Source: an uncultured Myxococcales bacterium (GTDB lineage: Bacteria > Myxococcota_A > UBA9042). From it: 64,000 nt of DNA. The position numbers and the translations under genes are program-made. Positions 1,599 through 45,720 of this stretch are shown piece by piece. The notes under the pieces were generated by a model. It was not told where the DNA came from. It ran no database searches and was given only the letters and a program-made list of their open reading frames with translations. The DNA is taken from positions 2,833 through 66,832 of the forward strand of contig CAISBR010000081.1 of NCBI GenBank assembly GCA_903883645.1. Direction: 5' to 3'. Within the stretch, counting starts at the first letter, position 1. Every line of letters starts with the position of its first letter.

Positions 1599-1758
1599 GC
1601 GCGAGCCTAGCAGAGTCGGGGCGCTCGCGGCGAGAGCCGTGTCGCGGCGCTAGGCGTTCATGTTCAATTTCAGCGTCGTAACTGGCTAGCCGGCCGATGC
1701 GGCCAAATGTCCAGCCCGCACCGCCGCTGCGTGCTCAAGCAACGGAGGCGCCATGCGG

Positions 1759-2940
1759 TCAGCAGCCGCCCCCCTTCTTGGCCGCTGAAGCGGGCGCCGC
1801 CGTGGGCACCACCGCAGCAGGAGCCGCTACGGGCGCTTGGGCACCGGTCAAGCGGGCGTGCAGAGCCCCGCGCAGGCGATACTCGGCAAGCCGGGCCGGC
1901 GACATGCTTTGGGTCGCCTCCGCCGGCAAGTCCGCCAGCAACTCAGCGGCATAGGCCGGGTAGCCGCCCTGCACACTGACCACTTCACCCGCGAATTCTG
2001 CAAGCTGTGTAGGCACTTCTTTAATTGTGTCGCCACCAATTAGCACGAGTTGCTGGTGGCTGGGCATCGCCGCCGCCGCCCCCTTGGTTACGTCGGACAG
2101 GCACACGGCCGCCGGCAGTGTTCTGTCTTTGCACAGTTTTTGCTCGCGCACATCGACCAGCCACAGCTTCTCGGGCTGGCGTAGCGCGGTATCAACTAGC
2201 GGCAACACTTTGATGGTCCCCGCTTTTCTTGCCACAGCGGACTGCACCGTCTGCGGCAAGGCCAGGGTCGCCAGGGCTGCCAGGGCCAAGACCGCCAAGA
2301 CCGCAAAGCTGCGGTTGCGCGGCCGCATCAGGGCATCGGGGGCAACCTGCTGATTCCGCTTTGAGAACCACCGCTCAATGGCCTCGGCGCCAAAGAAGCA
2401 GCCCACGGCCAGCGCTACCACCGCCGCTGCGACCACGCTATAGGGTAGGCCAAAGAGCGTGTCGAGCCGCAGCACCCCCGCCTTGCCCGACAAGTACAGG
2501 TCGGCAAACACCGGGTAAGTAAAGCCAAATACCAGCGACCCCAGCATCACGCCCAGGTAGGTGAGCATGCCGCCGATATCGCCCGAGGCCGCCGCCACGC
2601 ACGCCGTACCCGGGCAGTAGCCGGCGATGATGAAGCCGACGCCCAGCAGCAGGCCGCCGGTAAGTTGCGGCCACCAATAGGTTTCGGGGATGGTCAGCTG
2701 CCCTAGGTCGAGCCATCCTAGCCCCGCCAAGATGGCCAGCCCGGTGGCCGCCGTGGCGATCGCCGTAAACATCACCTTAAAGACACGCATGTTGGTGCCG
2801 TAGAACTGCGCTGCCAATATGGGTGCCCGGCCGAAGCCAGATCGCTCTAGGGCAAAGCCAAAGCCGATACCGGTCAGCGTGCCCACCACCATGCCGGTCG
2901 AACGCCCAAAGAATTCATTGGGATAAAGGGGTAGCATCAT
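1759..2940 (-). CDS. YeeE/YedE-family (DUF395) sulfur-compound transporter half, fused to a C-terminal rhodanese-like domain that has no active-site Cys
   Basis: The ORF track protein from residue 96 (MMLPLYPNEFFGRSTGMVVGTLTGIGFGF...) is polytopic with GYCPGTACV, typical of YeeE/YedE. The C-terminus (LWLVDVRE...QQLVLIGGD...VSVQGGY) has a rhodanese fold but IGGD replaces the catalytic Cys loop. The ATG at 2938-2940 overlaps the upstream gene's stop codon (ATGA overlap). The first 95 residues of the listed ORF are a likely spurious 5' extension. Confidence 0.7.
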   Translation of the reverse strand: MMLPLYPNEFFGRSTGMVVGTLTGIGFGFALERSGFGRAPILAAQFYGTNMRVFKVMFTAIATAATGLAILAGLGWLDLGQLTIPETYWWPQLTGGLLLGVGFIIAGYCPGTACVAAASGDIGGMLTYLGVMLGSLVFGFTYPVFADLYLSGKAGVLRLDTLFGLPYSVVAAAVVALAVGCFFGAEAIERWFSKRNQQVAPDALMRPRNRSFAVLAVLALAALATLALPQTVQSAVARKAGTIKVLPLVDTALRQPEKLWLVDVREQKLCKDRTLPAAVCLSDVTKGAAAAMPSHQQLVLIGGDTIKEVPTQLAEFAGEVVSVQGGYPAYAAELLADLPAEATQSMSPARLAEYRLRGALHARLTGAQAPVAAPAAVVPTAAPASAAKKGGGC

Positions 2941-3467
2941 TTCCAGTACCTCCGCAGCAGGGGCGCGACCAAGTAGCCGCCGCCAAAGACCGCGAACATG
3001 AACACCCACGAACCCGCAGCTAGCGCCGCGCCACCGGTCAGGGCCTGGCCCGAGGTGCAGCCACGACCCAGCCGCGCCGCTACCCCCATGATTACACCGC
3101 CGATTAGTGCCAGAGCCAGTCGCGACAGCACCGTGGCCCGCGGCCCGCGCAGCAGCACAAGCTTCATGCGCCCAGCAGAATAGGCCGCCAGCGCGCCGCC
3201 CAAGAACACGCCCAGCACTTCCCACACCAGCCAGTCGTCTAAAATGTGCTGGCCGGGCGCGACCATCGGCCCCATATAGGCACTATTTTCAACCGCCTGC
3301 GGGGCCACCAGGTGCGCCGCGCCGATCGCCACCCGGTTCGCCGCGCCCGAGCCGCCCAGGCCGTTGCCCATCACCACAAAACTGCCAAGCAGCACCAAGC
3401 CTAAGAAGATACCCGCCAGATACGGATTCCAGAACGGCGCTTCGTTGTGCGTCTTGTCGCTCATCAC
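2937..3467 (-). CDS. YeeE/YedE-family sulfur-compound transporter, second half-size subunit
   Basis: 176-aa polytopic membrane protein with the GRGCTSGQALTG motif characteristic of YeeE/YedE. It is translationally coupled to the downstream YeeE-rhodanese gene. Confidence 0.7.
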   Translation of the reverse strand: MMSDKTHNEAPFWNPYLAGIFLGLVLLGSFVVMGNGLGGSGAANRVAIGAAHLVAPQAVENSAYMGPMVAPGQHILDDWLVWEVLGVFLGGALAAYSAGRMKLVLLRGPRATVLSRLALALIGGVIMGVAARLGRGCTSGQALTGGAALAAGSWVFMFAVFGGGYLVAPLLRRYWK

Positions 3468-3473
3468 AACCCC

Positions 3474-4427
3474 CTATGGCAACAGCCGAAAACCACTATC
3501 TTGCCCCGCCGCCAGCAGCACCGCCCGCAGCGCCAGCCCACCCAGCAGCACCAGCGCCGGCGTCACCGCCACGAGCGGCAGATGTTTCTTTATTTCAATA
3601 CTTTCGAGCACTAGCGGCACCGCGATACCCATCACCACCACCAGCGACCAGAACGACGCGGTCCACGCGCCACCCAGCAGCGCATCCGCCGCCAGCTGCC
3701 CCGCCGCACCGGCATTGGCAAAACCCAATACCATCGAGGCAATCAGCACCCCTTCGACCGCCAGGGCCAGCATGTCCCAACGCACCAGCCGGTGCCGATC
3801 CGCTTCGTCCAACTTGAACAGCAGCAAGAACGCCGCGCCCGACGACAGACCTGAGGTCAGGAACAGGGGCCCCAGCACCGCGGTATTCCACTGGATTCGC
3901 GCCGTCAGCGTTCCCAGCAGCAGGCCGGTGTAAATGCCCAGACCCACGCCACCCGCCAGCGTCGCCCCCAGCAGCACTTGCCGCTGCCGCTGCGCCCAAG
4001 CCAGCACCCCCACCAACGGCAGCTTTTTCAGCAGCTTACCCTGCAGCTCGGGCCCCAGCGCCAGCAGCCCACTCAACGCCGCCACCGGGTAAATCAGCAC
4101 CAGGATCCACGCCCCCCACGACATCGGCGAGGTGGGGCGAAACGCCAGATAGAACCGAAAAACATGGAGTTTGTAGGCCAGGTCGAGAAACAGCGTACCC
4201 ATGCCCAAACTGAGCAGCACCAGCGCAACTAGGGGCGCCAGCTGCAGAATCCGCGCCGGGGCCGTGTCGCGCGGTCGCCACAGCAGCAGCGACGACAGGA
4301 TCAGCAGCCCCGCCACTAGGCCGCCCAAGAACAAATACACCGCAATTTCCCAGCCCCAGATGTGCAGCACCGGATCGATCTCGGCGTTGACGCGGGTACT
4401 GGTGTGTTCAAGCAGGGTCGGAAGCAT
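3474..4427 (-). CDS. NrfD/PsrC-family polysulfide/thiosulfate-reductase membrane anchor subunit
   Basis: 317-aa polytopic protein. The N-terminal HIWGWEIAVYLFLGG motif is typical of the NrfD/PsrC family. It lies directly downstream of the FeS and Mo subunit genes. Confidence 0.8.
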   Translation of the reverse strand: MLPTLLEHTSTRVNAEIDPVLHIWGWEIAVYLFLGGLVAGLLILSSLLLWRPRDTAPARILQLAPLVALVLLSLGMGTLFLDLAYKLHVFRFYLAFRPTSPMSWGAWILVLIYPVAALSGLLALGPELQGKLLKKLPLVGVLAWAQRQRQVLLGATLAGGVGLGIYTGLLLGTLTARIQWNTAVLGPLFLTSGLSSGAAFLLLFKLDEADRHRLVRWDMLALAVEGVLIASMVLGFANAGAAGQLAADALLGGAWTASFWSLVVVMGIAVPLVLESIEIKKHLPLVAVTPALVLLGGLALRAVLLAAGQDSGFRLLP

Positions 4428-4460
4428 CGCAACCTCGCAAAGTTCTAGGCTAATCAGCGC

Positions 4461-5006
4461 CTAGGTCAAAAAGTACAGGTTCGGCTCGCAGCCAGTCTCC
4501 GGGTGCAGCACCTTGTGGCGACGGCTGGCCAGCAGCTGCGCCACCTCGCCGTGCGGGTCGCTAACATCGCCAAAATGCAGCGTCTTCGTTGGGCAAATCG
4601 CCACGCACGCCGTGGTCTTGCCGCTGGCCACGCGGTGCGCGCAGAAGGTGCATTTGTCGACATAGCCCTCGGGGTGCACGTAGCGCGCGTCGTACGGGCA
4701 CGAGGCGATGCAGGCCTTGCAGCCGGTGCACTTGTCGTGGTCGACCAGCACGATGCCGCCCTCGACCTTGTGGCTGGCGCCGGTGGGGCACGCATCGACG
4801 CAGGGCGCATTGCTGCAGTGGTTGCAGCGTTCCGAGCGGATCTCGGCGCGCAGATTGGGGAAAATGCCCCAGATGTCTTCGACGATCCAGTCGCGGCAAT
4901 AGCCGTCGGGGGTGTTGTTCTCGGCCTTGCACGCGAGCACACAGGCTTTGCAGCCCACGCACAGGCGCGTATCGACGACCATCACGTAGCGTTTTTCGCC
5001 ATTCAT
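4461..5006 (-). CDS. 4Fe-4S ferredoxin-type electron-transfer subunit (PsrB/NrfC-like)
   Basis: Four Cys clusters are present (CVGCKACVLAC, CNHCSNAPCVDACP, CTGCKACIASCP, CTFCAHR). It sits between the Mo subunit and the NrfD subunit genes. Confidence 0.85.
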   Translation of the reverse strand: MNGEKRYVMVVDTRLCVGCKACVLACKAENNTPDGYCRDWIVEDIWGIFPNLRAEIRSERCNHCSNAPCVDACPTGASHKVEGGIVLVDHDKCTGCKACIASCPYDARYVHPEGYVDKCTFCAHRVASGKTTACVAICPTKTLHFGDVSDPHGEVAQLLASRRHKVLHPETGCEPNLYFLT

Positions 5007-5015
5007 CTTGCCCCC

Positions 5016-7214
5016 CTACGCCCTCTCGATCGCGACGAAGTTCACGTTCATGCCCGTGCCGCCAAACACCGGGTCGATCTTTGACCGCGACACCAGCGCC
5101 GTATCGTCGACGCCGCGGCCCTTGGCAAAGCGCAGCCCCGGCGCCGTATGCCCGTAACCATGCACCATAAATACACAATCGGGCCGAATGCGCTGGGTCG
5201 CCTTGAGCCGCAGCGGCGTCGACTTGACCCCGTCTTGGTTGGTCAGCCGCACCTGCGCGCCGTCGTCGAGCCCCATGTCGCGCGCCACTTGCGCGTTCAG
5301 CCACAGCTCGTTTTCGCTATAGATCTCCGACAAGAAGCGGTTGTTGGTCGTCCGCCCAAAGGTATGCGTCGGCGTGCGCCCCATCAGCAGCCTGAACTGC
5401 CCGCGCGGCGGCTCTTCGGGCGGCGTATAGTTGGGCAGCGGATCCAGCCCCGCATCGGCCAATTGTTGGCTAAACAGCTCGATCTTCTTGCTGGGCGTGG
5501 CGAAACTCGCCGGGGCACCGTCTTCTAAGAACACCGGCTTGCCCGGCCCCAGCGCCACGCCGTTCTTCAACACGGCCGCTACATCGAATTTGCCTGCCTC
5601 TAAACGGGCTTTGACCAGCTCGCTCGCGTCGTTCCACGGGAAGTAGGCGCCGAGGCCCAGCCGATTGGCCAGCTCCTTGGCGATCCACCAGCCCGGCTTG
5701 CTGTCGTACAGGGGCGCCACAGCCGGCTGCCGCACGGCGATATACTGGGACTTATAAGGGGTTACCACCACATCGTCCCACCGCTCGAGGTAGGTCGCCT
5801 CGGGCAGCACCACGTCGGCGTAGCCCACGATCTCGGCCGGCAGCACGTCTATCGCCACCAGCAGTTCTAAATGCTGAATCGCTTCAAGGGTCTTCTTGGG
5901 CTCCGGCAGCGCCTGGACCAAGTTCGTGCCGTATACAATCCACGCCTTCAGGTCGTAGTCGGCCGTACCCGGAATGGTCGCGTCGCGCAGCCCATGGGCC
6001 AAGCCCTCGTCGCCAAACGGAAACACCTTGCCCTTGGGTCGATCGGGCGCCCGCTTGAACGTATGGGCAAATTCCGGAACGCCCGCATATTTGGGCACAC
6101 CCAGCTTGGTCGGAAAGTAAAAGCCGCCGCGACGCCCATAGTTACCCAGCAGCGCATTGACGATCGCCATCGCCCGCGCCCGCTGCGTGTCGTCGCCATA
6201 CCACGCCGTGTGGCGCCCCGGGTGCAGCAGCGCCGCCGGCCGCGCCCCCGCCAAAAGCCGAATCGAATCGACGATCTGCGCGGGGTCCAGCCCCGTCTCG
6301 AGCGAGGCCCACTCGGGCGTCTTGTCGGCCACGTGTGCGCGCAACTGCTCAAGACCAATCGCGTACTTGGCAATGTATTCGCGGTCGTACAATCCCTCGC
6401 CCAGCATCACGTGGATCCACGCCAGCAGCAGCGCGATGTCGGTACCGGGCTTAATCGGCAGCCAATACCGGGCCTTACCCGCCGCCGTCGAAAACCGCGG
6501 GTCGACCACCACCAACTGCGCGCCGCACTCGATGGCCTTGGCAAATTCTTGCACCTGGGTATTGTGCATGTTTTCGCCTAGATGCGACCCAATCAGCGCG
6601 ATCGCCCGCGAATTCTCCAGGTCGATCACCTCGGGCGAACCCAGCGGCGCGCCAAAAGTCAGCTGAAAACCGACCTCGCGCGCCCCACGGCACTGCGCGT
6701 GCGAGGGCTGCCCCACATTGTCCGAACCATAGGCATTCAGCAGGTGGCGAAAGAACGAGCCGCCAAAGCCGTGCACAAACAGCGCTACCGCCTCGGGTCC
6801 ATGTTTCGTAGCGATTTCTTTGAGCTTATTGGCCACAAAGTCCAGCGCCTCGGGCCACTCGACCTCTTTGAATTTCTGCGCGCCGCGCTCGCCCACGCGG
6901 ATCATCGGCTTCTTGAGCCGATCCGGGTCGTATAGCAGCCCGGTGCCACCCGTGCCGCGCGGACACAGCGCACCATTCGACAGCGGATGCATGGGGTTAC
7001 CCACGATCTTGGTCACCTTGCCATCTTTGACATGCGCGAGCACACCGCACTTCCAAAAGCACAGCTCGCAAAAGGTCGCGACGGTATGGTCGCCGTCCGT
7101 GCCCGGATCGCTCTCGGCTTGGCCAGACTTGGGCAATCCCAGCGAGGTCGCCACCGCCACGCCCAGAGCCGTTGTGCCAGTAATTTTAATAAAGTCGCGT
7201 CGTTGCATTACCAT
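5016..7214 (-). CDS. Molybdopterin (Mo-bisPGD) oxidoreductase catalytic subunit, PsrA/PhsA-like, Tat-exported
   Basis: 732 aa with a twin-arginine signal (MQRRDFIKITGTTALGVAVA) and an N-terminal Cys cluster (CELCFWKCG). It shows family-level similarity to polysulfide/thiosulfate/tetrathionate reductase A subunits. Confidence 0.9.
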   Translation of the reverse strand: MVMQRRDFIKITGTTALGVAVATSLGLPKSGQAESDPGTDGDHTVATFCELCFWKCGVLAHVKDGKVTKIVGNPMHPLSNGALCPRGTGGTGLLYDPDRLKKPMIRVGERGAQKFKEVEWPEALDFVANKLKEIATKHGPEAVALFVHGFGGSFFRHLLNAYGSDNVGQPSHAQCRGAREVGFQLTFGAPLGSPEVIDLENSRAIALIGSHLGENMHNTQVQEFAKAIECGAQLVVVDPRFSTAAGKARYWLPIKPGTDIALLLAWIHVMLGEGLYDREYIAKYAIGLEQLRAHVADKTPEWASLETGLDPAQIVDSIRLLAGARPAALLHPGRHTAWYGDDTQRARAMAIVNALLGNYGRRGGFYFPTKLGVPKYAGVPEFAHTFKRAPDRPKGKVFPFGDEGLAHGLRDATIPGTADYDLKAWIVYGTNLVQALPEPKKTLEAIQHLELLVAIDVLPAEIVGYADVVLPEATYLERWDDVVVTPYKSQYIAVRQPAVAPLYDSKPGWWIAKELANRLGLGAYFPWNDASELVKARLEAGKFDVAAVLKNGVALGPGKPVFLEDGAPASFATPSKKIELFSQQLADAGLDPLPNYTPPEEPPRGQFRLLMGRTPTHTFGRTTNNRFLSEIYSENELWLNAQVARDMGLDDGAQVRLTNQDGVKSTPLRLKATQRIRPDCVFMVHGYGHTAPGLRFAKGRGVDDTALVSRSKIDPVFGGTGMNVNFVAIERA

Positions 7215-7349
7215 CGCCTCGCTACGCTTGTGACCCGCCGGCAGGGGGCGAGCCTCAAGTCGTAGGAGCCGACGCCAATCTGCGACGGTTCGCGGCCAAG
7301 ACGGTGGGGTGACAATCGGCGCGGCAGGTCAAATGCGCCGCAACATGTG

Positions 7350-11061: not shown

Positions 11062-14046
11062 CTACAGGCAGCAGACAGAGCAGGTGTTGGTGACCGACTC
11101 CATGCCGTTTGAGGTGCCGCTGGTGGCCGTGGCTTTGTGCCGCATGAGCCGGGTGTCGTAGCCGCTCGCCCAGATCTGCGTGGCCACGGCGCTGTCGTCG
11201 ATGCAGAGGGTCTTGCCGTGTACTTGCGGGCCGTTATAGGCCTCGACGCCGCCGATGTGACCCGAGTAGGCCGTGCTGTAGCCCGCAGCGCAGGCCGTCG
11301 AGCCCAAGCTGGTATAGCAGCCGCCGGTGCAGCAAATGGCACAATTATTCGGCACTTCTTGCATGCCGTTCGAGCTGTCTTGGGCGCGCATCAAGCGGTT
11401 ATTAAAGCCGCTCGCCCACGCAGTCTTGGTGGCCGCGCCAGTGGTGACGCACTCTAGGTTGCCGTGCATGGTGCCGCCGCCCGTTTGGTAGTTCTCCAAG
11501 CCGCCAGGCCGCCCGGTGACCACCGCAGTAAAGCCAGACGCGCAACTGGTGCTGCCCCAGTGCGTGTAGCACGAACCGGCGTTGGGGTGGCTGTGGTCCG
11601 AACGCGAGGCGGTGACTGCCGAACCGCTGCCGGCAAAGTTGACCGCAACGGTGCCACTGGTGGTAATTGTGCCACCCGACAGGCCCGTGCCTGCGACAAT
11701 CGACGTGACCGTGCCGCCCGAGTTCGCGTCGGCGCTGCAGGTGACCGCACCCGTGGCACTGATGCCAAGGACATGCTGCCCAGACGGGCACGCCTGGTTC
11801 GATATGGCGAAATTGCTTCCTGAATAGGTGGTATTGGCATCGGCCGCGCACGAGACTACGCCGCTCGCGTTGATGCCGCTGACGTACTGCCCGGCGGGGC
11901 AGCCCTGGTTCGAAACCGCAAAGTTTGTGCCCGAGTACGTAGTGTTGGCGTCGCCGGCGCAGGTGACCACACCGCTCGCGTTGATGCCGCTCACATACTG
12001 GCCGCCCGGGCAACTCTGCGCCGATGTGGCGAAATTCGCGCCCGAGTAGGTCGTGTCTTTGTCGGCAGTGCACGTGGGCTTGCCGGTGGCGTCGATGCCG
12101 AGCATGTGCTGGCCCGAGGCGCAAGTCTGGTTCGATAAAGCGAAATTGCTGCCCGAGTAGCTGTTATTGGCGTCGGCGGCACAGGTCACTGCACCGCTGG
12201 CGTTGATGCCCGTGACCACTTGGCCCGACGCGCAAGCCTGGCTGCTGACTGCGAAATTGGCACCCGAGTAGCTGTTGTTGGCGTCGGCGGCGCAGGTGAC
12301 CGCACCGCTGGCGTTGATGCCGCTCACATACTGGCCGCCCGGGCAACTCTGCGCCGATGTAGCGAAATTTGCCCCCGAGTAGGTCGTGTCTTTGTCGGCG
12401 GTGCACGTGGGCTTGCCGGTGGCGTCGATGCCGAGCATGTGCTGGCCCGAGGCGCAAGTCTGGTTCGACAAAGCGAAATTGCTGCCCGAGTAGCTGTTGT
12501 TCGCGTCGGTGGCACAGGTCACTGCACCGCTGGCGTTGATGCCCGTGACCACTTGGCCCGACGCGCAAGCCTGGCTGCTGACTGCGAAATTTGCCCCCGA
12601 GTAGGTGGTGTCTTTGTCGGCGGTGCAGGTGGGCTTGCCAGTGGCGTCGATGCCGAGCATGTGCTGGCCCGAGGCGCAAGTCTGGTTCGACAAAGCGAAA
12701 TTGCTGCCCGAGTAGCTGTTGTTCGCGTCGGCCGCGCAGCTTACTTTGCCGCTGCCGTCGATGCCGGTGACCACTTGGCCCGACGCGCAAGCCTGGCTGC
12801 TGACTGCAAAATTACTTCCTGTATATGTCGTGTCCTTGTCGACGGCGCACACGACGGCGCCGCTGGCCGAGATGGCGGTCGCGACCTGGCCGCTGGGGCA
12901 GGCTTGGCTCGCCAGCGCAAAATCCTTGCCGCTGTAGGTGGTATTGGCGTCGGCGGCGCACTGAGCTTTACCTGTACCATCAATGGCATACACCACTTGG
13001 CCGGGGGCACAGGCCTGGCCCGACACCGCAAAATCCTTGCCGCTGTACAGCGTGTCTTTATCGACCGCGCACACCACCTTGCCGCTGCCATCGACGCCGG
13101 TGGCGACTTGACCACTCGGGCAAGCCTGGTTGGATACAGCGAAATTCTTGCCGTCGTAATTAACCGGGGTGTTCTGGTCGGCCACGCAAGTAATCTTGCC
13201 GTCCGCGCCGATGGCCGCGATGATCTGACCGCTGGGGCACGTTTGACCCGAAAGCGCAAAGTTCTTGCCATCATACACACTCGGCGTGTTCTGATCGGCC
13301 ACACAGGTGAGCTTGCCGTCCGCGCCAATGGCCGCCACGATCTGGCCGCTGGGGCAGGTCTGACCCGAAAGCGCAAACGAATTACCATCGTACGTGGGCA
13401 AGTCTTGGCATGCCACCTTGCCGTTCGCATCCACGCCGACCACCGTCTGGCCTTTGCCACACGCCTGCCCCGTCGGCACCAACTGCGGCGTTCCCTTTAA
13501 ATCCGCGAAGTTGCCAGACGTTGCCACCGCAGCAAGCGAGGCACTTTTGGCATACGGCTGCAGCACTTCGGCGGCCAGCATGTCGGCATTCACACAACCC
13601 GAGCACTGCAGCGCCTGGGCCGACGACGCCACCTGCGCCCGCAGCGCATACGGCACCTGATGCAGCGCCAGCCGCGGCAATTCGGCCTCCGCGCCCACTT
13701 GCGCACTAACCCAGGTCGCCTGACCGCCGAAAAACACGGACTTATCCAGCGGGGTCTTGGCGCCAACCTGCACCGCAAACATGCCCTTGATGACCTTGAC
13801 CGCCGGATCGATATAGGTATATACCGCCTTGGTATCATTCACATTTTCGTAAAATCGTAGCGTCAGCGCGTAGTCACCGTCGGGCACCGGAAAGCCGGCG
13901 GCATTGGTCAAACGCCCCTGCAGCGCCAGTTGGTCCTCGACCGCCAGCGCCGGCAGCGCAACGGTCAGCCCGAGCAGCAGCGCCAGCCCCGCCAGCGCCC
14001 GCAGCCAGGTTTTCCCCATTGTTCTAGTGCGTTGCATCCTCATCAT
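11062..14046 (-). CDS. Large secreted repeat protein: N-terminal beta-rich domain, about 16 tandem 37-aa Cys-pair repeats (consensus YSGxNFAxSxQxCxSGQxxxGIxAxGxxTCxADxNT), then a duplicated Cys-rich C-terminal module
   Basis: Signal peptide MGKTWLRALAGLALLLGLTVALPALA. The repeat unit is 111 bp, and three-unit (333-bp) super-repeats are near-identical at DNA level. For example, the shadow ORFs 11991..12182 and 12324..12515 are offset by 333 bp and are nearly identical. The C-terminus holds two ~85-aa modules ending in CAICC and CSVCCL. The exact start is uncertain (candidate Met codons at 14019-14046). Confidence 0.7.
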   Translation of the reverse strand: MMRMQRTRTMGKTWLRALAGLALLLGLTVALPALAVEDQLALQGRLTNAAGFPVPDGDYALTLRFYENVNDTKAVYTYIDPAVKVIKGMFAVQVGAKTPLDKSVFFGGQATWVSAQVGAEAELPRLALHQVPYALRAQVASSAQALQCSGCVNADMLAAEVLQPYAKSASLAAVATSGNFADLKGTPQLVPTGQACGKGQTVVGVDANGKVACQDLPTYDGNSFALSGQTCPSGQIVAAIGADGKLTCVADQNTPSVYDGKNFALSGQTCPSGQIIAAIGADGKITCVADQNTPVNYDGKNFAVSNQACPSGQVATGVDGSGKVVCAVDKDTLYSGKDFAVSGQACAPGQVVYAIDGTGKAQCAADANTTYSGKDFALASQACPSGQVATAISASGAVVCAVDKDTTYTGSNFAVSSQACASGQVVTGIDGSGKVSCAADANNSYSGSNFALSNQTCASGQHMLGIDATGKPTCTADKDTTYSGANFAVSSQACASGQVVTGINASGAVTCATDANNSYSGSNFALSNQTCASGQHMLGIDATGKPTCTADKDTTYSGANFATSAQSCPGGQYVSGINASGAVTCAADANNSYSGANFAVSSQACASGQVVTGINASGAVTCAADANNSYSGSNFALSNQTCASGQHMLGIDATGKPTCTADKDTTYSGANFATSAQSCPGGQYVSGINASGVVTCAGDANTTYSGTNFAVSNQGCPAGQYVSGINASGVVSCAADANTTYSGSNFAISNQACPSGQHVLGISATGAVTCSADANSGGTVTSIVAGTGLSGGTITTSGTVAVNFAGSGSAVTASRSDHSHPNAGSCYTHWGSTSCASGFTAVVTGRPGGLENYQTGGGTMHGNLECVTTGAATKTAWASGFNNRLMRAQDSSNGMQEVPNNCAICCTGGCYTSLGSTACAAGYSTAYSGHIGGVEAYNGPQVHGKTLCIDDSAVATQIWASGYDTRLMRHKATATSGTSNGMESVTNTCSVCCL
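11900..13300. repeat. Array of 111-bp coding tandem repeats organised as 333-bp near-identical super-repeats
   Basis: Derived from the periodicity of the translated 37-aa units and from duplicated shadow ORFs offset by 333 bp. Confidence 0.65.
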
Positions 14047-14072: not shown

Positions 14073-16079
14073 CTAGGGCAACCAGGCCGCCAACCAGCGC
14101 AAAAGCCCCGTCCAGGTCGAATTGCCGTTGCCCGTCGCGTTGGCCGGCCCGATCGTCAGTGACTCGCCGCCCAGCTCGAGCCACGCCGCTTGATCTCCGA
14201 CTGCGGCCTGCCCCGCCAAGCCGGCAAAGCCGATCTCGAGCGCATTGGCCTTGCAGCCCTCGTCGGTAAAGCCGTCGCAGTCGTCGTCGACGCCATCGCA
14301 CGCTTCTACGCCGCTCGGCACGACCTCGCCGTCACATACCCCGAACTTTCCGTCTTTGCAGAGTTTCTTGCCATTATGGCATATCCCTACGCCGTCTGTA
14401 CCGTTGCCGCCGCTGTAGCAGTCGCTGGTAGCGGCATTGGGTAACCCCACGCAACCCTTGGCCGGGTCGCACGAATCGTCGGTGCACGGGTTACCATCGT
14501 CGCAAGACTGGCTAGCCGCGCCGGCCAAGCAGAGCGCACCGCCACCCGGGTCAGCCTCGCAGTGGTCGCCCACGCTGCACGCATCGCCATCGCTGCACGA
14601 CGCGCCGCTCAGCACGCTGTGCACGCAGCCGCCGCTTTGTTTGTCGCAGCTATCGCCGGTGCAGGGGTTGGCGTCGTTGCAACTCTTTAAGTCCGGATTC
14701 AGACACTTGCCCGTCGTGCCATCGCAATTATCGGCGGTGCAGGCGTTGTCGTCGACGCACGTCGCCTCGTCGCTTTTGCCGTTGCAGTCGTCGTCTTTGC
14801 CGTTACAGATCTCGATCTTGGCCAAGTTGCTGGTGGTGCACAGGGCGGTGATGATGGTCTGGCATTGCACGCTGCCCCCGGCGCACAGGCCGCTGCCGCA
14901 GGGCTGGCCCACGCCCACGGTGGCGCCGGTCGACAGTTCGACCACAAAGAAGTCTTCGTCGGTCAGGCCGTCGCAGTCGTCGTCTTCGTTGTTGCAGATC
15001 TCTTTCTTGGGCGTCGCGGCATCGGTGCAGACGAGCTGTCCGCCGCTTGTGCAGGTGGGCTTGCCGGGGCACTTGCCCAAAATCATCTTACAGATCAATG
15101 CGTCGCAACCCTCACCGCTCAGGCAGTCGCCGTCTTGTTCGCAGGCCTTGCCGCTGCCGCCGGCTTGGTAGGCGGTCTTAAAGCAGGTCGCGTCGGGCGC
15201 CAAGTTGTCGATCTTGCCGTCGCAGTTGTCGTCTTCGGCGTTGCACTCTTCGGCCTTGGCTACCTTGCCGCTGCACGCACTCAGGCCGTCGGGGCCGCAC
15301 GAGCGCGAACCGCCGCACATTCCGAAACTATTGACGATCTGGCAATCGGTGCTGAGGCCCGACTGCTTGCCCCAGGTGGTACAGGTGCACAGCGCCGCCG
15401 CAGCTTTCAAGCGGCATTGCTTGCTTTGCGACGCCCCGTCTTTCTGGTCGACGCAGCCGTAGCCATCGGGGCAGTCGCCGTCACTGGCGCAGGTGGCGCC
15501 ACAGAACTTGCCGTCGACAGCATAGTCTAGACACCAAGCGGTCTTATCGCCCCCTACTTGGCAGTCACTGTGCGCTTTGCACGGCGAGCAGAGCGAGACC
15601 TGCTTGGGCAAGCACATCGACACGGGGTCGACCGCGCCGTAGAGCTGGCACTCCCAGCCGATCGGGCAAGTCGATGCGCCGCCACAGGTTTTGCTGCACT
15701 GCTTGCCGTTGGCGGTGGTTATGCACGCGCCCGAGTCGCACTGAGTGTCTTGCGTGCAGGTGCAGAACGGTCCGCCCGGGCACTCGCCGCTGCCCACGTC
15801 GCCCAGGGTGTCGCTGCCCGAGTCGCCGAAGCTGTCGCTGCCCGTGGCGTCCGTTCCTTCATCGAAGTCGTACACATCGGTCTGGGCATCGGGGGGCGCG
15901 GCCAAGTCATTGCTGGTCACGTCGGGCGCGATATCGGTCGGCGCTGCCACCGTGCCCGTCGAGTCGTTGCTGCAAGCAGCTGTCAACAAAGCACAAATCA
16001 ATACGAGCGTGCCGGCGCGCAGCGTCAACACGGCGGCGGGTCGTGGCGTGCGACTCGGGGTTGCAATGGGGCAATGCAT
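14073..16079 (-). CDS. Cys-rich secreted lipoprotein with MopE-type putative metal-binding motifs (CNxEDDNCDG..D, CNNEDDDCDGLTDE, CNGKDDDCNGKSDE, CDGVDDDCDGFTDE)
   Basis: The ORF track protein from Met100 (MHCPIATPSRT...LVLICALLTAAC|SND) carries a lipobox. About 90 Cys are present. It contains four copies of the myxobacterial putative metal-binding motif plus CxxDxxxC modules. The stop lies just before the start of the repeat protein gene. Confidence 0.65.
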   Translation of the reverse strand: MHCPIATPSRTPRPAAVLTLRAGTLVLICALLTAACSNDSTGTVAAPTDIAPDVTSNDLAAPPDAQTDVYDFDEGTDATGSDSFGDSGSDTLGDVGSGECPGGPFCTCTQDTQCDSGACITTANGKQCSKTCGGASTCPIGWECQLYGAVDPVSMCLPKQVSLCSPCKAHSDCQVGGDKTAWCLDYAVDGKFCGATCASDGDCPDGYGCVDQKDGASQSKQCRLKAAAALCTCTTWGKQSGLSTDCQIVNSFGMCGGSRSCGPDGLSACSGKVAKAEECNAEDDNCDGKIDNLAPDATCFKTAYQAGGSGKACEQDGDCLSGEGCDALICKMILGKCPGKPTCTSGGQLVCTDAATPKKEICNNEDDDCDGLTDEDFFVVELSTGATVGVGQPCGSGLCAGGSVQCQTIITALCTTSNLAKIEICNGKDDDCNGKSDEATCVDDNACTADNCDGTTGKCLNPDLKSCNDANPCTGDSCDKQSGGCVHSVLSGASCSDGDACSVGDHCEADPGGGALCLAGAASQSCDDGNPCTDDSCDPAKGCVGLPNAATSDCYSGGNGTDGVGICHNGKKLCKDGKFGVCDGEVVPSGVEACDGVDDDCDGFTDEGCKANALEIGFAGLAGQAAVGDQAAWLELGGESLTIGPANATGNGNSTWTGLLRWLAAWLP

Positions 16080-16110: not shown

Positions 16111-17607
16111 CTAGCGACTGCCACCCGTGGCGGCAACGGCATTCTCTGCGGCGACACTGCGATCTTGCCGCGCTCGCCGCGATTTGGCCACCGCCCGTGC
16201 CTGATGGGTCTGGTCGTCGCGGCCCGCGTGCTCGGCTGTTTCTGCAACACAACCGCCATCGCCCACCAGCCAGGCCAGCAGCAACTTGCCCAACCGGTCG
16301 ACCGAAAGCTGGTGCGTCTGCGCCGTGGTCGCGAACAGCCAATCGCCAAACGCCAGCAGCCGCGCAAACGGCGCATCCGCCAAAAGCAACGGCAGCAGGT
16401 GCGGAAAGCGCGCAGAATTACCCACCAAATCCCAGTAGCGCGCCAGCCGACTCAAGCGCTGCAGGTCGGCAAATGGCCAGTCGGGCGTCTGCAGCACGAG
16501 GTACGGCGGTACCGGGTCGAAGTGCAGCCCCAGGTTCTGCGCCCGCTCGGCCAGGGGTGTTCCGCGCAGGCGCTTGAGAACTCCGACCTGGATCTCGTGC
16601 ACGCCCAGGCCATACAACCAGTTGAAGCCCTTAGAAAAACTGGCCATATCCTCGCCTGGCAGCCCGGCGATCAGGTCCACGTGCAGGTGGGCATGGGTGT
16701 GTTCGCGCAGCCAGCGCAGGTTCGCCGCCGAGCGCTCCATGTCTTGCACCCGGTCGATCTGCTTCTGACTCGCGGGGTTCAGCGTCTGGATGCCGATCTC
16801 AAGCTGCAGCGTCCCTGGCAAGAACTGCGCCAAGCGCTCGCGCAGCGGCTCGGGCAGCCGGTCGGGGATCATCTCGAAATGCAAGAACAATTCGGGAGTC
16901 AGCCGCTCCAAGAAGAAGTCGAGAATCGCCGCGCTGTGTCCCAGTTGCAGGTTAAACGTGCGATCGACGAACTTGAAGTGGCGCAGGCCGCGGTCGTACA
17001 AGCGGCGCATCTGCTCAAGAAACCGTTCTAAATCAAACGGAACTGCGGTCTTGTCGAGCGCCGACAAGCAAAACGCGCAACGAAACGGACAACCGCGCGA
17101 GGCCTCGACATACACGAGCCGCGTCTGCAGGTCGTGGTCGCTGTACTCCGCATACGGCCACTGAATTTGCCCCAGCTCGGCCGTCTCGGCGTGGCTGATC
17201 TTGCGCGGAACAGCGCCGGCCAAAATCTGCCGACACAGCTGGGCAAAAGCCAAGTCCGCTTGGCCCGTGATCACAAAATCGGCTTGCTGCACAACGGCTT
17301 GCAACTCGGTCTCGTGGCTCACCTCCGGCCCGCCCAGCACCACCAGCACCTCGGGCGCCACAGCCTTTAGAATCGCAACGATCTCAGCTGTATACACCGT
17401 ATTCCAGATGTACACGCCCAGGCCCACGATGCGCGGCTTCTCGGCCAGGATCTTTTCGACGATCTCGGCCGCGGGGCGATCGTGGGTAAATTCGAGCAGG
17501 CGCGTCTGCGACCTTAGCTCGCCCATATTCGCGAAAAGATAGCGCAAACCCAGCGAAGCGTGGATGTACTTGGCGTTGACGGTGGCGAGGACGATCGCGC
17601 TCGGCAC
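16111..17607 (-). CDS. B12-binding-domain radical SAM protein (DUF4080-type)
   Basis: N-terminal cobalamin-binding-like Rossmann segment (IVGLGVYIWNT...VLVVLGGPE) followed by the radical-SAM CxxxCxxC motif (RGCPFRCAFC). Its start abuts the stop codon of the upstream mutase gene (17607/17608). Confidence 0.85.
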   Translation of the reverse strand: MPSAIVLATVNAKYIHASLGLRYLFANMGELRSQTRLLEFTHDRPAAEIVEKILAEKPRIVGLGVYIWNTVYTAEIVAILKAVAPEVLVVLGGPEVSHETELQAVVQQADFVITGQADLAFAQLCRQILAGAVPRKISHAETAELGQIQWPYAEYSDHDLQTRLVYVEASRGCPFRCAFCLSALDKTAVPFDLERFLEQMRRLYDRGLRHFKFVDRTFNLQLGHSAAILDFFLERLTPELFLHFEMIPDRLPEPLRERLAQFLPGTLQLEIGIQTLNPASQKQIDRVQDMERSAANLRWLREHTHAHLHVDLIAGLPGEDMASFSKGFNWLYGLGVHEIQVGVLKRLRGTPLAERAQNLGLHFDPVPPYLVLQTPDWPFADLQRLSRLARYWDLVGNSARFPHLLPLLLADAPFARLLAFGDWLFATTAQTHQLSVDRLGKLLLAWLVGDGGCVAETAEHAGRDDQTHQARAVAKSRRARQDRSVAAENAVAATGGSR

Positions 17608-19290
17608 TTAAATCACCAGCGTCTCTTGGTGGCGGCCGAACACTTCGCGCAGCGTCGCGCTGATTTCGCCAGTCGTCGCACGGGCTTTCGCCGCCTGCAC
17701 CATCGCGTCCATCACATTTTGGCCACCTTGCGCGGCCGCTCGCAGATTCGCCAATGCTTCGGTGTGCTTAACAGGGTCGCGCGTCGCCCGCAGCTGCTGC
17801 ACCCGGGCAATCTGCTGGCGCTCCACCTCGGGGTCAACCTTGAGCACCGGCATCGGCGCCTCGTTCTCGACCTGGAACTTGTTGACACCTACGATGATTT
17901 GCTCGCCCCTCTCGACTGCAAGCTGCCACCGGTAGGCCGAGTCCTGGATCTCGCGCTGCGGATAGCCCTTCTCGATCGCCGCGACCATGCCGCCCATCTC
18001 GTCGATTCGGCTCAGGTATTCGCGGGCCTTCTTCTCGAGCGCGTCGGTCCACTGCTCGATCAAGTAACTGCCGGCCAGCGGATCGACCGCATCGGCCACG
18101 CCCGACTCATAGGCAATAATCTGCTGAGTTCGCAAGGCAATTTGCGCACTCGCCTCGGTCGGCAGCCCCAGCGCCTCGTCGCGCGAGTTGGTGTGCAGCG
18201 ACTGCGTACCGCCCAACACCGCCGCAAGTGCCTGAAGTGTCACGCGAACAATGTTGTTATCGGGCTGCTGCGCCGTCAGCATCGAGCCGGCGGTCTGGGT
18301 ATGAAAGCGCAGCTTGCACGACTCGTCGCTCTGCGCGCCAAAACGCTCGCGCATGATCGTGGCCCACAGCCGCCGCGCCGCACGGAACTTGGCGACTTCT
18401 TCCAAGAAATTGTTATGGCCATTAAAGAAGAACGCCAGTCGACCCGCAAAATCGTCGATGTCGAGGCCCGCGTCGAGCGCCGCCTGCACATAGGCCATAC
18501 CATCGCCCAGCGTAAAGGCAATTTCTTGCGCGGCATCGCAGCCCGCCTCGCGCACGTGGTAGCCCGAGATCGAGATCGTGTTCCACTTGGGCACATTTTG
18601 GCCGCACCAGGCGAACAGGTCGGTAATCAGGCGCATCGACGGCCGCGGCGGGTAGATCCAGGTGCCGCGCGCCATGTATTCCTTCAAGATATCGTTCTGC
18701 ACAGTGCCCGTCAGCACGCTGGGCGGCAGGCCCCGCTCTTCGGCCACCGCCACCAAGAAGGCCAGCAGCGTCGTCGCGGTCGAGTTGATGGTCATCGACA
18801 CGCTGACCTTGTCGAGCGGCAGATCCTGCATCAAAACATGCATATCCTCTACGCTCGCGATCGACACGCCGACCTTACCGACCTCGCCCAGCGCCATTGC
18901 ATCGCCCGGGTCGTAGCCCATCTGCGTCGGCAGATCGAAAGCCACCGATAGCCCCGTTTGGCCGCGCTGCAAAAGGTAGCGGTAGCGCTGGTTCGACTCG
19001 GCGGCTGTGCCAAAACCTGCGTATTGTCGCATAGTCCAGAGCCGTCCGCGGTACATGGTCGCCTGCACGCCGCGCGTATACGGGTACTGACCGGGCAAGC
19101 CAAGCTGGCTCAGGTACTGCGGATCATCGCCCGCAGGCAGCGCCAAGTCGGCGACCTCCTCGCCAGTCGAGCGAGTAAACTCGGCGCGCCGCAAACCTTT
19201 TTTCTTAGCCGCAGCCAGCAGCCGGCCGGCCCAAGCCTGCTGCGCTTGCTGTACGGTCGGGCTCAGCGGCGAAGATTGGTGTTCCGTCAT
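17608..19290 (-). CDS. Methylmalonyl-CoA-mutase-family acyl-CoA mutase, catalytic (TIM-barrel) subunit only, with no C-terminal B12-binding domain
   Basis: 560 aa with a canonical MCM N-terminal region ([59 protein letters not shown]). It ends before any DxHxxG/Rossmann B12 module, as in the IcmA/MCM-alpha split forms. Confidence 0.85.
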
Positions 19291-19293
19291 GGT

Positions 19294-20325
19294 CTACACT
19301 CCCGTTGGTCCATCTGGCGTTGTTCCATCTGGCGTTGTTCCATCTGGCGTTGTTCCATCTGGCGCGGCGACGTCTACAGGAGCGGGCGGGCGATCACCGC
19401 CGCGGTTGCCCACTACTGCGCCCCAGTCATTATCGCCAAAATCATGATCTTCGGGCCAAAACTCGGCAGGTGGCGGGCAGTAATAGCGCCGCGGCTGCCC
19501 CGTCGCCGGCTCGATTAGGCCCAAAGCGGCCGCGTGCAACGCAATGCGCCCCCGGTGCGGCCCGGTGGGATCGCCATACAGCCGGTCGCCCAGCAGCGGC
19601 CCGATCGCCCACGCCACATGCAGACGAATCTGATGCGTGCGCCCGGTGTCCAGCGCCAATTCGAGCAGCGACAGTTGCCGTTTAGCATCATAAGCCAGCG
19701 GATTTACCCATGTATGCGCCGGCATGCCGGTCGCCGTCAGCGCCATCCGCCCCGGCTCGATCTCGTCGACAGGCTCGTCGATGTCCATCACCCCTGGAGC
19801 ACGGCCGGTACGGGCAACGGCCAAGTAGCGGCGACGGGCGCGATGGCTCCGAAATTGTTCAGCAAGATCGGCAGCAGTCTCCCGATCGAGGGCGTAGACC
19901 ACCAGCCCCGAGGCATCGCGGTCAAGTCGATGAATTTCGCCAAGATACGTGTGCGGGCCCAGCTCGCGCTGCAGGCGCAGATTCAGCGCATCACCCCCGC
20001 GCGGCGGTGGTTGCGTGGGCAGGCCCGCCGGCTTGTTCACAATCCACAGGTGCGCATCGCGGTAAATCGTAACGATCTTGCCGGCATCAATGTCACGCCG
20101 CTCGGCCGGAGCCTGAGGCTGCACCCGCACTTGCTGCCCCTCTACCACGTGCACGCCGGGCTCGCGCACGCGCAGGCCCGCCACATATACCGCGCCGTCA
20201 CGGATCAAGTATTGGGCCTTGCCGCGACTCCATTGCAGCGCGGAGCTGACCGCGACGTCGAGCCGCATCGGCGATTGCACTGCAAACTCAACGGGCTGTT
20301 GATCTATTTCGCCAGTGGGACCCAT
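19294..20325 (-). CDS. RluA-family 23S rRNA pseudouridine synthase (RluD-like, S4 domain) with a C-terminal PDGTT x4 repeat tail
   Basis: From Met245 of the listed ORF (MGPTGEIDQQ...). It has an S4-like N-terminus, the catalytic HRLDRDASGLVVYA motif, and HQIRLH. The first 244 aa of the listed ORF are a spurious extension. Confidence 0.8.
   Translation of the reverse strand: MGPTGEIDQQPVEFAVQSPMRLDVAVSSALQWSRGKAQYLIRDGAVYVAGLRVREPGVHVVEGQQVRVQPQAPAERRDIDAGKIVTIYRDAHLWIVNKPAGLPTQPPPRGGDALNLRLQRELGPHTYLGEIHRLDRDASGLVVYALDRETAADLAEQFRSHRARRRYLAVARTGRAPGVMDIDEPVDEIEPGRMALTATGMPAHTWVNPLAYDAKRQLSLLELALDTGRTHQIRLHVAWAIGPLLGDRLYGDPTGPHRGRIALHAAALGLIEPATGQPRRYYCPPPAEFWPEDHDFGDNDWGAVVGNRGGDRPPAPVDVAAPDGTTPDGTTPDGTTPDGPTGV
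19310..19366. repeat. 15-bp perfect tandem repeat (CCATCTGGCGTTGTT, about 3.8 copies) inside the 3' end of the rluA-like gene
   Basis: Read directly from the sequence. It encodes the PDGTTPDGTTPDGTTPDG tail. Confidence 0.9.
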
Positions 20326-20418
20326 CGTCACGTTCCTATCCGGGCCAAGGCGGGCCGGGCGCGCTCTGCGGCGACAACCCCGCCGGTGCACAAAGTTTTT
20401 GTCTAGGTCACTGCCGGT

Positions 20419-20447
20419 TTGGCAAACTGCCTCACCTGCCGTATCAT
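20419..20447 (+). promoter_or_regulatory. Candidate sigma70-type promoter TTGGCA-N17-TATCAT for the hypothetical/glycosyltransferase operon
   Basis: Hexamers at 20419-20424 and 20442-20447 with 17-nt spacing, about 130 bp upstream of the ATG at 20576, in a divergent intergenic region. Confidence 0.3.
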
Positions 20448-20575
20448 GCCCCTTAGTCGTCGCGCGGGTCCAGCGTCGGAGCAGGCCTCGCCAGAATGAC
20501 CACGCCGAGCCGGTCACTCTGAGCGGATCACCCTGAGCGGCCCCAACCGGTAGAACGCGCGCAGCCGGAGTTGAA

Positions 20576-21460
20576 GTGGCGAACCCCCCGATCACCAATT
20601 TCGCAGTCGAACCCGATGTGCCGAACGACCCCCTCGCAGCGGCCGAAGGTCCCGAGTGGGCCCGTGCGCGCCACATGGCCGTGCTGGGCCTGCCTCTCGA
20701 CGAGCGCACTCTCAGCCTGCTCGCGGCGCTAGAGCACATCGATCTGCTCGTGCCTACCCGCGCAGAGGCCGCCACCAGGACCGTGCGCGTGCGGCAGCAG
20801 ACCGAAGAGTTGCCCGCCGCCGCAGTGGACGTGGCCGCAGCCCTCGACAGCGACCTAGCAGACGAACTGCCCGACGATATTGCTGAGGCGATTGAGCTTT
20901 CGCCGGATGAAGTGAGCGACGCTGGCTTTGCGCCGCCCGCCCCCGACGACGAGACGCTGCCCCAGACGATCAAGATGCCGCAGTTTGCGACGGCCGATAC
21001 CATCGTGCTGTCGGGCCCGGAGATCAAGCGCAAGATTCGCCATAAGCAATCGATCATGCCCAGTTACGTGGCGCAAGTGCTGTACGAAGACATCGGCGCT
21101 CTGTTCGAAATTGGGGATCGCGAAGGCGCGTTGGTATCCCTCGAGCGGCTGCTCGTGGTGGCGCCCATTACCCCGCAAATTGAGAGCTTCTTGGAGCATA
21201 ACGAGGCGCGGCTCGTCGAATACTACGAGTCGGTCCTCGGTCCATGGACGCGCACGGGGCGGCTGCGCGAGGGCGAGACGGCACTGCCCGGGGCGTTCTA
21301 TAGCTTTGAGAAGGTCGCCCAGTTGGTGCGCCACCTCGACGGTACGCTGCCTCTCGGTGAGGTGATCGCGCGCTCGGGTCTGCGCAACATCGAGGCGTGC
21401 TCCGTGCTGTCGCAGCTGTCGCGCTCGTCGAGCCTCGACCTGTCGGACAAGCCCGCTTAG
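20576..21460 (+). CDS. Hypothetical acidic protein (acidic N-terminal half, structured C-terminal domain)
   Basis: 294-aa ORF with sustained coding potential. It is followed 4 nt later by the GT4 gene, so is probably co-transcribed. No confident family assignment. Confidence 0.5.
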   Translation: MANPPITNFAVEPDVPNDPLAAAEGPEWARARHMAVLGLPLDERTLSLLAALEHIDLLVPTRAEAATRTVRVRQQTEELPAAAVDVAAALDSDLADELPDDIAEAIELSPDEVSDAGFAPPAPDDETLPQTIKMPQFATADTIVLSGPEIKRKIRHKQSIMPSYVAQVLYEDIGALFEIGDREGALVSLERLLVVAPITPQIESFLEHNEARLVEYYESVLGPWTRTGRLREGETALPGAFYSFEKVAQLVRHLDGTLPLGEVIARSGLRNIEACSVLSQLSRSSSLDLSDKPA

Positions 21461-44889: not shown

Positions 44890-44900
44890 GGTTGACTCCT

Positions 44901-45188: not shown

Positions 45189-45309
45189 ATAATAACGGGG
45201 CCCGGTAGTAACGGCAAGCGTTCATACCATCCCAGCCACCAGCGCTGCGGGCAGAACGTCCCAGACCTGTGTACAAGCGCGGCCAGTGGCCCACAGCATT
45301 CGCTGAAAG

Positions 45310-45711: not shown

Positions 45712-45720
45712 CTTGACCTC

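Follow-up and report, generated by a model that had tools for sequence, protein, structure and literature searches.

Gene organization of the locus

The region lies within a 64,000-nucleotide stretch of DNA from an uncultured Myxococcales bacterium, hereafter the window, and carries a compact run of genes transcribed from the minus strand that code for a predicted RluA-family pseudouridine synthase, a methylmalonyl-CoA mutase (MCM) large subunit and a B12-binding radical-SAM protein (Table 1). The three open reading frames share one common frame, with a 3-bp gap between the rluA-like and mutase genes (...GTG TAG ACC ATG...) and a 0-bp gap between the mutase and radical-SAM genes (...GTG ATT TAA GTG CCG...). 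The coordinates, gaps and tight coupling given for these genes in a preliminary description of the DNA are thus borne out by the reading frames and junction sequences.

Table 1. Genes and sequence features of the mutase region
Feature	Position	Strand	Basis
Cys-rich Dicty_CTDC-repeat protein	14073-16079	-	Gene calls on L001-L005, PF00526
B12-binding radical-SAM protein, DUF4080 family, 498 aa	16111-17607	-	PF02310, PF04055, borderline PF13311
Abutting TAA|GTG stop/start, mutase/radical-SAM	17605-17610	-	Junction sequence
MCM large (catalytic, TIM-barrel) subunit, split form without B12 domain, 560 aa (predicted)	17608-19290	-	PF01642, TIGR00641
RluA-family pseudouridine synthase with N-terminal S4 domain, 343 aa, RluD/RluC-like architecture	19294-20325	-	PF00849, PF01479
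15-bp tandem repeat, 4.1 copies	19303-19364	-	TRF score 117
294-aa protein, no Pfam match	20576-21460	+	Divergent from rluA-like gene; in conserved synteny block

The rluA-like open reading frame spans 19294-21057 (minus strand), and an internal ATG at 20325, called as the start on five independent assemblies (L001-L005), gives the 343-aa protein. It matches PF00849 (8e-27) and PF01479 (2e-8), with TIGR00005 at 169 bits falling under its cut-off of 192.7. The 15-bp tandem repeat codes for PDGTT repeats at the C-terminus of the RluA-like protein and ends just ahead of the mutase start; one assembly (L003) has an extra repeat copy, and its RluA-like protein is 348 aa long.

The abutment of mutase and radical-SAM genes is also present in a relative whose mutase is 90% identical, where the stop codon is a different one (TGA|GTG; L006). 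Between these two genomes dS is about 0.7-0.9, and the retention of the abutment at this distance could reflect selection for coupled expression. In this lineage the two genes probably share a transcript and have coupled translation, and the abutting stop and start codons would be compatible with termination-reinitiation coupling. The change of stop codon from one genome to the other makes a specific recoding or readthrough signal unlikely. Programmed readthrough, or a mutase-radical-SAM fusion from in-frame reading frames with a single stop between them, is rejected on the same grounds (TAA vs TGA); it is also countered by the start of the radical-SAM gene, which fits its homologs, with many alignments beginning at query residues 1-5. 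A scan of the window at Rfam gathering thresholds finds neither a cobalamin riboswitch nor any other Rfam element. The tight packing is not specific to these three genes, since the same-strand run goes on past the radical-SAM gene: the Dicty_CTDC-repeat gene, which probably continues the run and may be on the same transcript, lies 31 bp downstream on the same strand, and another gene for a large protein follows 29 bp further.

The mutase and its partner subunit

The mutase is matched over its full length by PF01642 at 744 bits (cut-off 22.1), its sole Pfam domain, and it scores 782.6 bits with TIGR00641 (acid_CoA_mut_N; cut-off 303.8). The DxHxxG motif of B12-binding small subunits is present in none of the RluA-like, mutase and radical-SAM proteins. 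The best 120 matches to the mutase are all about 550 aa long with PF01642 only, and many of these are annotated as 'methylmalonyl-CoA mutase N-terminal domain/subunit'. Judged by these features, it is an ordinary large-subunit-only MCM and a member of a large family of split mutases of about 550 aa. The preliminary description of a 560-aa, catalytic-subunit-only mutase therefore stands, with PF01642 only and no DxHxxG, but its implication that a mutase without a B12 domain is an oddity does not, this being a very common form, shared by all of the best 120 matches and usually unlinked from its partner.

The residues expected to set substrate class are those of an MCM. The Tyr of RQYAGF, the Gln of TVQND, the Arg of MARGT and the Tyr-His of SGYH correspond to the aligned residues of human MMUT, and in the alignment to its structures (8gju/2xij) a segment of 21 residues (letters not shown) and SGYH are conserved throughout; we take these active-site residues to be equivalent to P. 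shermanii Tyr89/Gln197/Arg207/Tyr243/His244. In isobutyryl-CoA mutases (IcmA/IcmF) the Tyr89 position is taken by Phe and that of Arg207 by Gln, and an isobutyryl-CoA mutase (ICM) identity is ruled out by the Tyr and Arg found here and by the scores of the IcmF and MCM models (349 vs 673 bits). The best-scoring solved structure is that of HcmA (PDB 4r3u), which shares the split architecture and aligns over the full length at 525 bits. A 2-hydroxyisobutyryl-CoA mutase (HCM) is expected to carry Ile90 and Asp117 where MCM has Tyr and Ala, and to replace Arg207 by Gln. In the alignment to 4r3u_A, HcmA shows Ile within RQIAGF, Thr-Asp within STDFD and Gln within MAQKE, whereas the window mutase has Tyr, Val-Ala and Arg, as in human MMUT. 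An HCM identity is ruled out by these three differing positions (I/Y, TD/VA, Q/R). Placement by specificity residues, a check proposed in the preliminary description, thus gives an MCM type, neither HCM nor ICM. The gene is under purifying selection, with a dN/dS of 0.09 relative to the 90% identical mutase.

Split MCMs are known from archaea, Geobacterales, Anaerolineae, Bacillota and Myxococcota, and the window mutase shares with them the length of about 550-560 aa, the restriction to PF01642/TIGR00641 and the MCM residues. Their genes are commonly unlinked from those for the small subunit and MeaB, as in the window. The window mutase differs from them in nothing substantive, just in its immediate gene neighbours (rluA upstream, a DUF4080 radical-SAM gene downstream). 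The biochemically characterised split MCM of Metallosphaera sedula, Msed_0638/Msed_2055, is encoded by unlinked genes according to the accounts of Han et al. (2012) given in PMC7078158 and PMC6759758.

Searches of the six-frame translation of the window with HMMs of the small subunit and of MeaB, both built from related loci, gave no match to either at E<=1e-3, and among the other large open reading frames in the window a Pfam survey revealed neither a B12 subunit or MeaB nor an epimerase or propionyl-CoA carboxylase; the earlier statement that neither small subunit nor MeaB is encoded nearby thus holds across all 64 kb. Among 80 genome loci of mutase relatives, a small subunit is found within the flank in 15 and is absent in 65, and MeaB is found within the flank in ten. 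In none of the seven lineages of the clade to which the window mutase belongs does a small subunit lie within 8-10 kb, and the partner of this clade is thus not directly seen in any of its members. In an identity-based UPGMA clustering the clade falls beside Myxococcota clusters in which the small subunit and MeaB lie 3-7 kb from the mutase (L052, L085, L088), and the window mutase is 63-68% identical to large subunits adjoining canonical small subunits and MeaB. Three independent small subunits of the Myxococcota type lie in a conserved module shared with MeaB; in related Myxococcota this module, separate from the mutase, consists of genes for an acyl-CoA dehydrogenase, the small subunit, a cupin and MeaB.

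The three best candidates retrieved with a Kofleriaceae small-subunit query (P0316, P0271, P0315) are from organisms other than the source of the metagenome-assembled genome (MAG). The location of the partner elsewhere in the source genome is thus deduced from the relatives, whose gene arrangements favour it over the other alternative raised previously, that of an uncharacterised unit formed with the radical-SAM protein. As a rule, the genes for the catalytic subunits of this mutase family lie apart from those for the small subunit and MeaB. An 'orphan' large subunit is a common annotation pattern, and it should be read with caution before a new B12 system is proposed.

The B12-binding radical-SAM protein

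The preliminary description of a cobalamin-binding domain fused to a radical-SAM core is supported by matches to PF02310 (B12-binding, 53.8 bits) and PF04055 (Radical_SAM, 55.9 bits), with the CxxxCxxC motif present as CPFRCAFC at residue 173. The assignment to PF13311 (DUF4080), the type named in that description, is borderline, at 22.8 bits against a cut-off of 22.9 and covering the first half of the model only. Among the matches listed, 118 of 120 homologs carry PF13311, including those at 56-63% identity; the closest listed homolog (P0121, 78% identity) is one of the two that do not. Relative to the genome with the 90% identical mutase, dN/dS for the radical-SAM gene is 0.18.

The B12-binding domain of this protein is, as far as profile and motif comparisons can tell, unlike those of mutase small subunits: it gave no match to the small-subunit HMM, has no DxHxxG and aligned to the small-subunit profile with an hhalign probability of 6.8%. 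The nearest solved structures, at about 1e-10 over the core, are those of the class-B cobalamin-dependent radical-SAM methyltransferases TokK and CysS, with which it shares a B12-binding domain at the N-terminus and, after it, a radical-SAM core with CxxxCxxC; the C-terminal region, which would correspond to DUF4080, is specific to its family. The protein belongs to class B and is most likely a cobalamin-dependent methyltransferase. Its closest relatives outside the two genomes with the three-gene arrangement are from other phyla. The DUF4080 family is abundant, with at least 8000 matches scored, and has no mention in the literature searched.

Gene order in relatives and its interpretation

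The three-gene arrangement is present only in the source organism (L001-L005) and in GCA_037441385.1, which carries the 90% identical mutase, so that the mutase/radical-SAM adjacency is seen in two of the seven lineages of the mutase clade. In each of the other five (mutases of 82%, 78%, 76%, 75% and 74% identity) a different gene follows the mutase, coding for a Ser/Thr kinase, a DsbA-like protein, a TPR/CHAT protein or others. The rluA-like gene adjoins or lies near the mutase in six of the seven lineages. The divergent 294-aa gene belongs to the conserved synteny block as well: four further lineages of the clade have a counterpart of 286-294 aa in the equivalent place, likewise without a Pfam match. 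No radical-SAM homolog lies within 10 kb on either side of the mutase at any of the 80 loci of mutase relatives, and no mutase or rluA homolog is found near the radical-SAM relatives (0/47 loci). Clustering of neighbours shows no conserved neighbour of the radical-SAM family either, with no gene family in more than five of the 47 loci.

Because the adjacency is confined to two closely related genomes, it is most likely a recent accident of gene order. We favour, with a probability of roughly 0.8, an ordinary split MCM with an unlinked partner and a radical-SAM protein that is an independent enzyme, the two being adjacent through compact packing. The mutase would be the catalytic large subunit of a two-component adenosylcobalamin-dependent MCM that interconverts (R)-methylmalonyl-CoA and succinyl-CoA, its partner being a separately encoded DxHxxG B12-binding small subunit of about 135-140 aa which, like the MeaB G-protein chaperone, would be encoded elsewhere in the genome. 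The radical-SAM gene would have become the downstream neighbour of the mutase in a recent ancestor shared by the two closely related genomes, perhaps by transfer or rearrangement, and the stop/start coupling would reflect compact gene packing and no shared biochemical function. The significance of the pairing itself is little, and the wider interest lies in an abundant DUF4080 radical-SAM family that has no conserved gene neighbourhood to hint at its substrate.

The best surviving alternative, although an improbable one, is a lineage-specific 'B12 regulon', in which independent enzymes without physical interaction are co-expressed since both need cobalamin. The pair does consist of two cobalamin enzymes with translational coupling in two genomes, but neither a cobalamin riboswitch nor any other regulatory RNA is recognisable, the run also includes genes for a Cys-rich protein of secreted type and an rRNA/tRNA pseudouridine synthase, both unrelated to B12, and the arrangement is not kept in relatives.

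It is very unlikely that the radical-SAM protein is tied to translation (e.g. as an RNA or ribosomal-protein methyltransferase alongside the RluA-like enzyme) with the mutase as a bystander. The radical-SAM gene does share a run with rluA here, and there are two anecdotal associations elsewhere: the ortholog in Methylococcus sp. EFPC2 lies downstream of efp and shares a 4-bp overlap with epmA, and on another contig the ortholog precedes rpsP-rimM-trmD-rplS. Neither the neighbour clustering of the 47 loci nor the lack of rluA near any other radical-SAM relative agrees with such a role, and the rluA-mutase pairing predates the arrival of the radical-SAM gene.

The least probable reading, to which we give hardly any weight, is the new functional unit contemplated in the preliminary description, in which the radical-SAM protein or its cobalamin domain supplies or processes the cofactor of the mutase, or acts on the same acyl-CoA-derived metabolite; it can point to the 0-bp abutment kept in two genomes, to purifying selection on both genes, to a 64-kb window devoid of small subunit and MeaB and to small-subunit candidates none of which comes from the source genome, but the adjacency is not conserved in relatives, an outcome that the description itself named as refuting it, being absent at 80 of 80 mutase loci and 47 of 47 radical-SAM loci, five other clade lineages keep an intact mutase without it, the radical-SAM B12 domain does not resemble a small subunit, and the mutase is close to large subunits that have canonical partners. 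It is comparably doubtful that a freshwater Myxococcota lineage recruited the radical-SAM protein as a mutase partner held by strict translational coupling, where it might be an alternative module that carries cobalamin or processes the cofactor, or might act on the mutase product.

Organization of the rluA-like, mutase and radical-SAM genes

The three genes are transcribed leftwards in one common reading frame, and direct reading of the sequence gives TAG-ACC-ATG at the rluA-like/mutase junction and TAA-GTG at the mutase/radical-SAM (rSAM) junction; the 3-bp and 0-bp gaps of the preliminary description are therefore real, and its coordinates are borne out by the ORFs. The mutase is, as proposed there, a catalytic-only form, with the acyl-CoA mutase catalytic domain as its sole domain (PF01642, 744 bits; TIGR00641, 783 bits), and a motif search found DxHxxG in none of the three proteins. 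The downstream gene does code for a B12-binding domain and a radical-SAM core (motif CPFRCAFC, residue 173), although its assignment to the DUF4080 type is borderline (22.8 bits vs a 22.9 cut-off).

An identical mutase is present on at least 18 lake-metagenome contigs and in the MAG GCA_903878715.1, and the order of the three genes is the same in all six displayed places that carry it. In these, a Cys-rich protein with Dicty_CTDC repeats is called 31 bp downstream of the rSAM gene, followed after 29 bp by a further large protein in four of the six; the tight same-strand run therefore exceeds three genes. The large Pfam-less protein downstream of the Dicty_CTDC protein varies strongly in length or is fragmented among assemblies with the identical mutase (L001-L005, downstream of 15248), with lengths of 958, 1069 and at least 708 aa (contig end) and pieces of 135-495 aa, and the region is hypervariable or hard to assemble. 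The PDGTT units forming the RluA-like C-terminal tail number four in the window and five in lake assembly L003, so copy number is variable within the population.

Coordinates of features in the window and in retrieved loci (L-numbers)
Feature	Position	Strand	Basis
RluA-family pseudouridine synthase, N-terminal S4 domain, 343 aa	19294-20325	minus	ORF and domain search
Acyl-CoA mutase catalytic domain protein, 560 aa	17608-19290	minus	ORF and domain search
B12-binding and radical-SAM protein, DUF4080 borderline, 498 aa	16111-17607	minus	ORF and domain search
15-bp tandem repeat (PDGTT), 3' end of rluA-like gene	19303-19364	minus	
Large Pfam-less protein	about 11062-14043	minus	
Pfam-less 286-294-aa protein	20576-21460	plus	
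Same, relatives	L156 7928-8788; L007 5695-6561; L157 9104-9976		
Small subunit/cupin/MeaB module, acyl-CoA dehydrogenases preceding	L088 8001-10548; L146 4001-6749; L158 3001-5551		
DUF4080 rSAM ortholog with efp, epmA	L098 4450-7512		
DUF4080 rSAM ortholog with rpsP-rimM-trmD-rplS	L099 6001-10023		
HigB-like toxin/HTH antitoxin, two tandem adjoining pairs	44584-46107	minus	
Psr/Nrf-like respiratory cluster	1-7328	minus	

The mutase and its partner subunit

The best 120 database matches of the mutase are 522-570 aa long (nearly all ~540-565 aa) with PF01642 as sole domain, come from Myxococcota, Anaerolineae, Bacillota and Geobacterales, and in many cases are named 'methylmalonyl-CoA mutase N-terminal domain/subunit'. 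The top-scoring solved structure is the split 2-hydroxyisobutyryl-CoA mutase HcmA (4r3u), but at three aligned positions, which we take to be substrate-discriminating, the window mutase matches human MMUT and differs from HcmA: the Tyr of RQYAGF (Ile in HcmA), SVAFD (STDFD in HcmA) and the Arg of MARGT (Gln in HcmA). The Gln of TVQND and the Tyr-His of SGYH are likewise kept as in human MMUT. With these MMUT-type rather than HcmA-type residues, the protein is predicted to be the catalytic subunit of a split-type methylmalonyl-CoA mutase. Biochemical characterisation of this type exists for Metallosphaera sedula, where the two subunit genes are unlinked (Msed_0638/Msed_2055; Han et al. 2012, cited via PMC7078158 and PMC6759758).

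HMMs from the small B12-binding subunits and MeaB chaperones of related loci had no match at E<=1e-3 in the six-frame translation of the 64-kb window, in keeping with the earlier view that neither is encoded nearby. A mutase without a neighbouring partner is not unusual: among 80 loci of relatives (one-genome-per-species contigs, 53-82% identity, flanks up to 10 kb), 15 have a small subunit within the flank and 10 have MeaB. Identity-based clustering groups the window mutase with L006, L007, L009 and L010, adjoining Myxococcota clusters (Kofleriaceae, Polyangia, Haliangiales) in which, at several loci, a small subunit and MeaB are encoded 3-7 kb from the mutase (L052, L085, L088). Three independent small subunits nearest to a Kofleriaceae query, all from organisms other than the source of the window, each lie in a conserved acyl-CoA dehydrogenase/small subunit/cupin-domain protein/MeaB module, with the large subunit either ~5.7 kb off on the opposite strand or beyond the flank. 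We strongly favour (probability about 0.8) a partner encoded elsewhere in the genome and a recent, lineage-specific adjacency to the rSAM gene; the gene arrangement first observed is correct, and the case would be an ordinary instance of the known split-mutase type.

We note that the cupin-domain protein (389-414 aa) between small subunit and MeaB is conserved in three Myxococcota-type lineages. The MAG Baikal-deep-G138 has two mutase copies on separate contigs (L009, SHZF01000110.1; L010, SHZF01000034.1), both ~75-76% identical to the window mutase by tblastn, which may be paralogs or reflect a mixed bin.

Conservation of the mutase-rSAM adjacency

In the clade whose mutases share at least 74% identity with that of the window, the order rluA, mutase, rSAM is found only in the source organism and the 90% relative GCA_037441385.1 (TGA-GTG abutment). 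The mutase follows rluA but precedes a Ser/Thr kinase gene in the 82% relative and a TPR/CHAT protein gene in the 74% relative; the 78% relative lacks both rluA and rSAM, the 76% relative (Baikal locus L009) has rluA ~1.4 kb upstream and lacks rSAM, and the 75% relative has an inverted rluA, a 290-aa gene and then the mutase. No rSAM homolog was found at E<=1e-5 in any of the 80 genome loci of mutase relatives. Viewed from the rSAM, the relatives listed are a 78% ortholog and then only proteins of 56-63% identity to the window rSAM, the named ones from Gammaproteobacteria, Massilia or Obscuribacterales; three individual contexts and 45 metagenome loci contain no mutase or rluA homologs, and all-against-all clustering of neighbouring ORFs of 47 rSAM loci gave no neighbour family in more than five loci. 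The Pfam-less ~290-aa protein, present at the same position beside the rluA-mutase block in five clade lineages, persists there more than the rSAM does. The ~290-aa gene and the rluA-mutase block are therefore the older, partly conserved unit, which the rSAM gene most likely joined recently, on the 3' side.

The preliminary description had also offered, as an alternative, an uncharacterised functional unit of mutase and B12-rSAM, which is now very improbable. The abutting stop and start are retained in two genomes at dS ~0.7-0.9, and purifying selection acts on each of the three genes (dN/dS 0.11 for the rluA-like gene, 0.09 for the mutase, 0.18 for the rSAM), but the adjacency is confined to two lineages and the mutase is 63-68% identical to large subunits located near canonical small subunits. 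The small-subunit HMM does not pick up the rSAM, and profile-profile comparison aligns only the central Rossmann strands (57 columns, 6.8% probability), which, with the missing DxHxxG, speaks against its cobalamin domain as a stand-in for the small subunit. The retained junction and purifying selection make co-transcription and translational coupling plausible in this lineage, short of the almost certain co-translation first suggested; the data support no more.

In Methylococcus sp. EFPC2 (CP070491.1) a DUF4080 rSAM ortholog downstream of efp overlaps epmA, the EF-P lysylation gene, by 4 bp, and at another locus an ortholog precedes rpsP-rimM-trmD-rplS. These neighbours hint at a translation link, with no conserved neighbours in the clustering of the 47 loci.

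Chromosomal neighbourhood

An Rfam scan of the whole window gave no match above threshold for any family, the cobalamin riboswitch among them, and a Pfam survey of its other large ORFs found no propionate or methylmalonyl pathway genes. These ORFs form an ordinary chromosomal neighbourhood, including a Psr-like molybdopterin oxidoreductase, PntAB, a xanthine-dehydrogenase-family enzyme, BamA/TamB, a multicopper oxidase, two HigBA pairs, YchF, ClpB and an aldehyde dehydrogenase. The respiratory cluster at the left end codes for a multihaem cytochrome c, a sulphur-transport-like protein, NrfD, a 4Fe-4S protein and a molybdopterin oxidoreductase.
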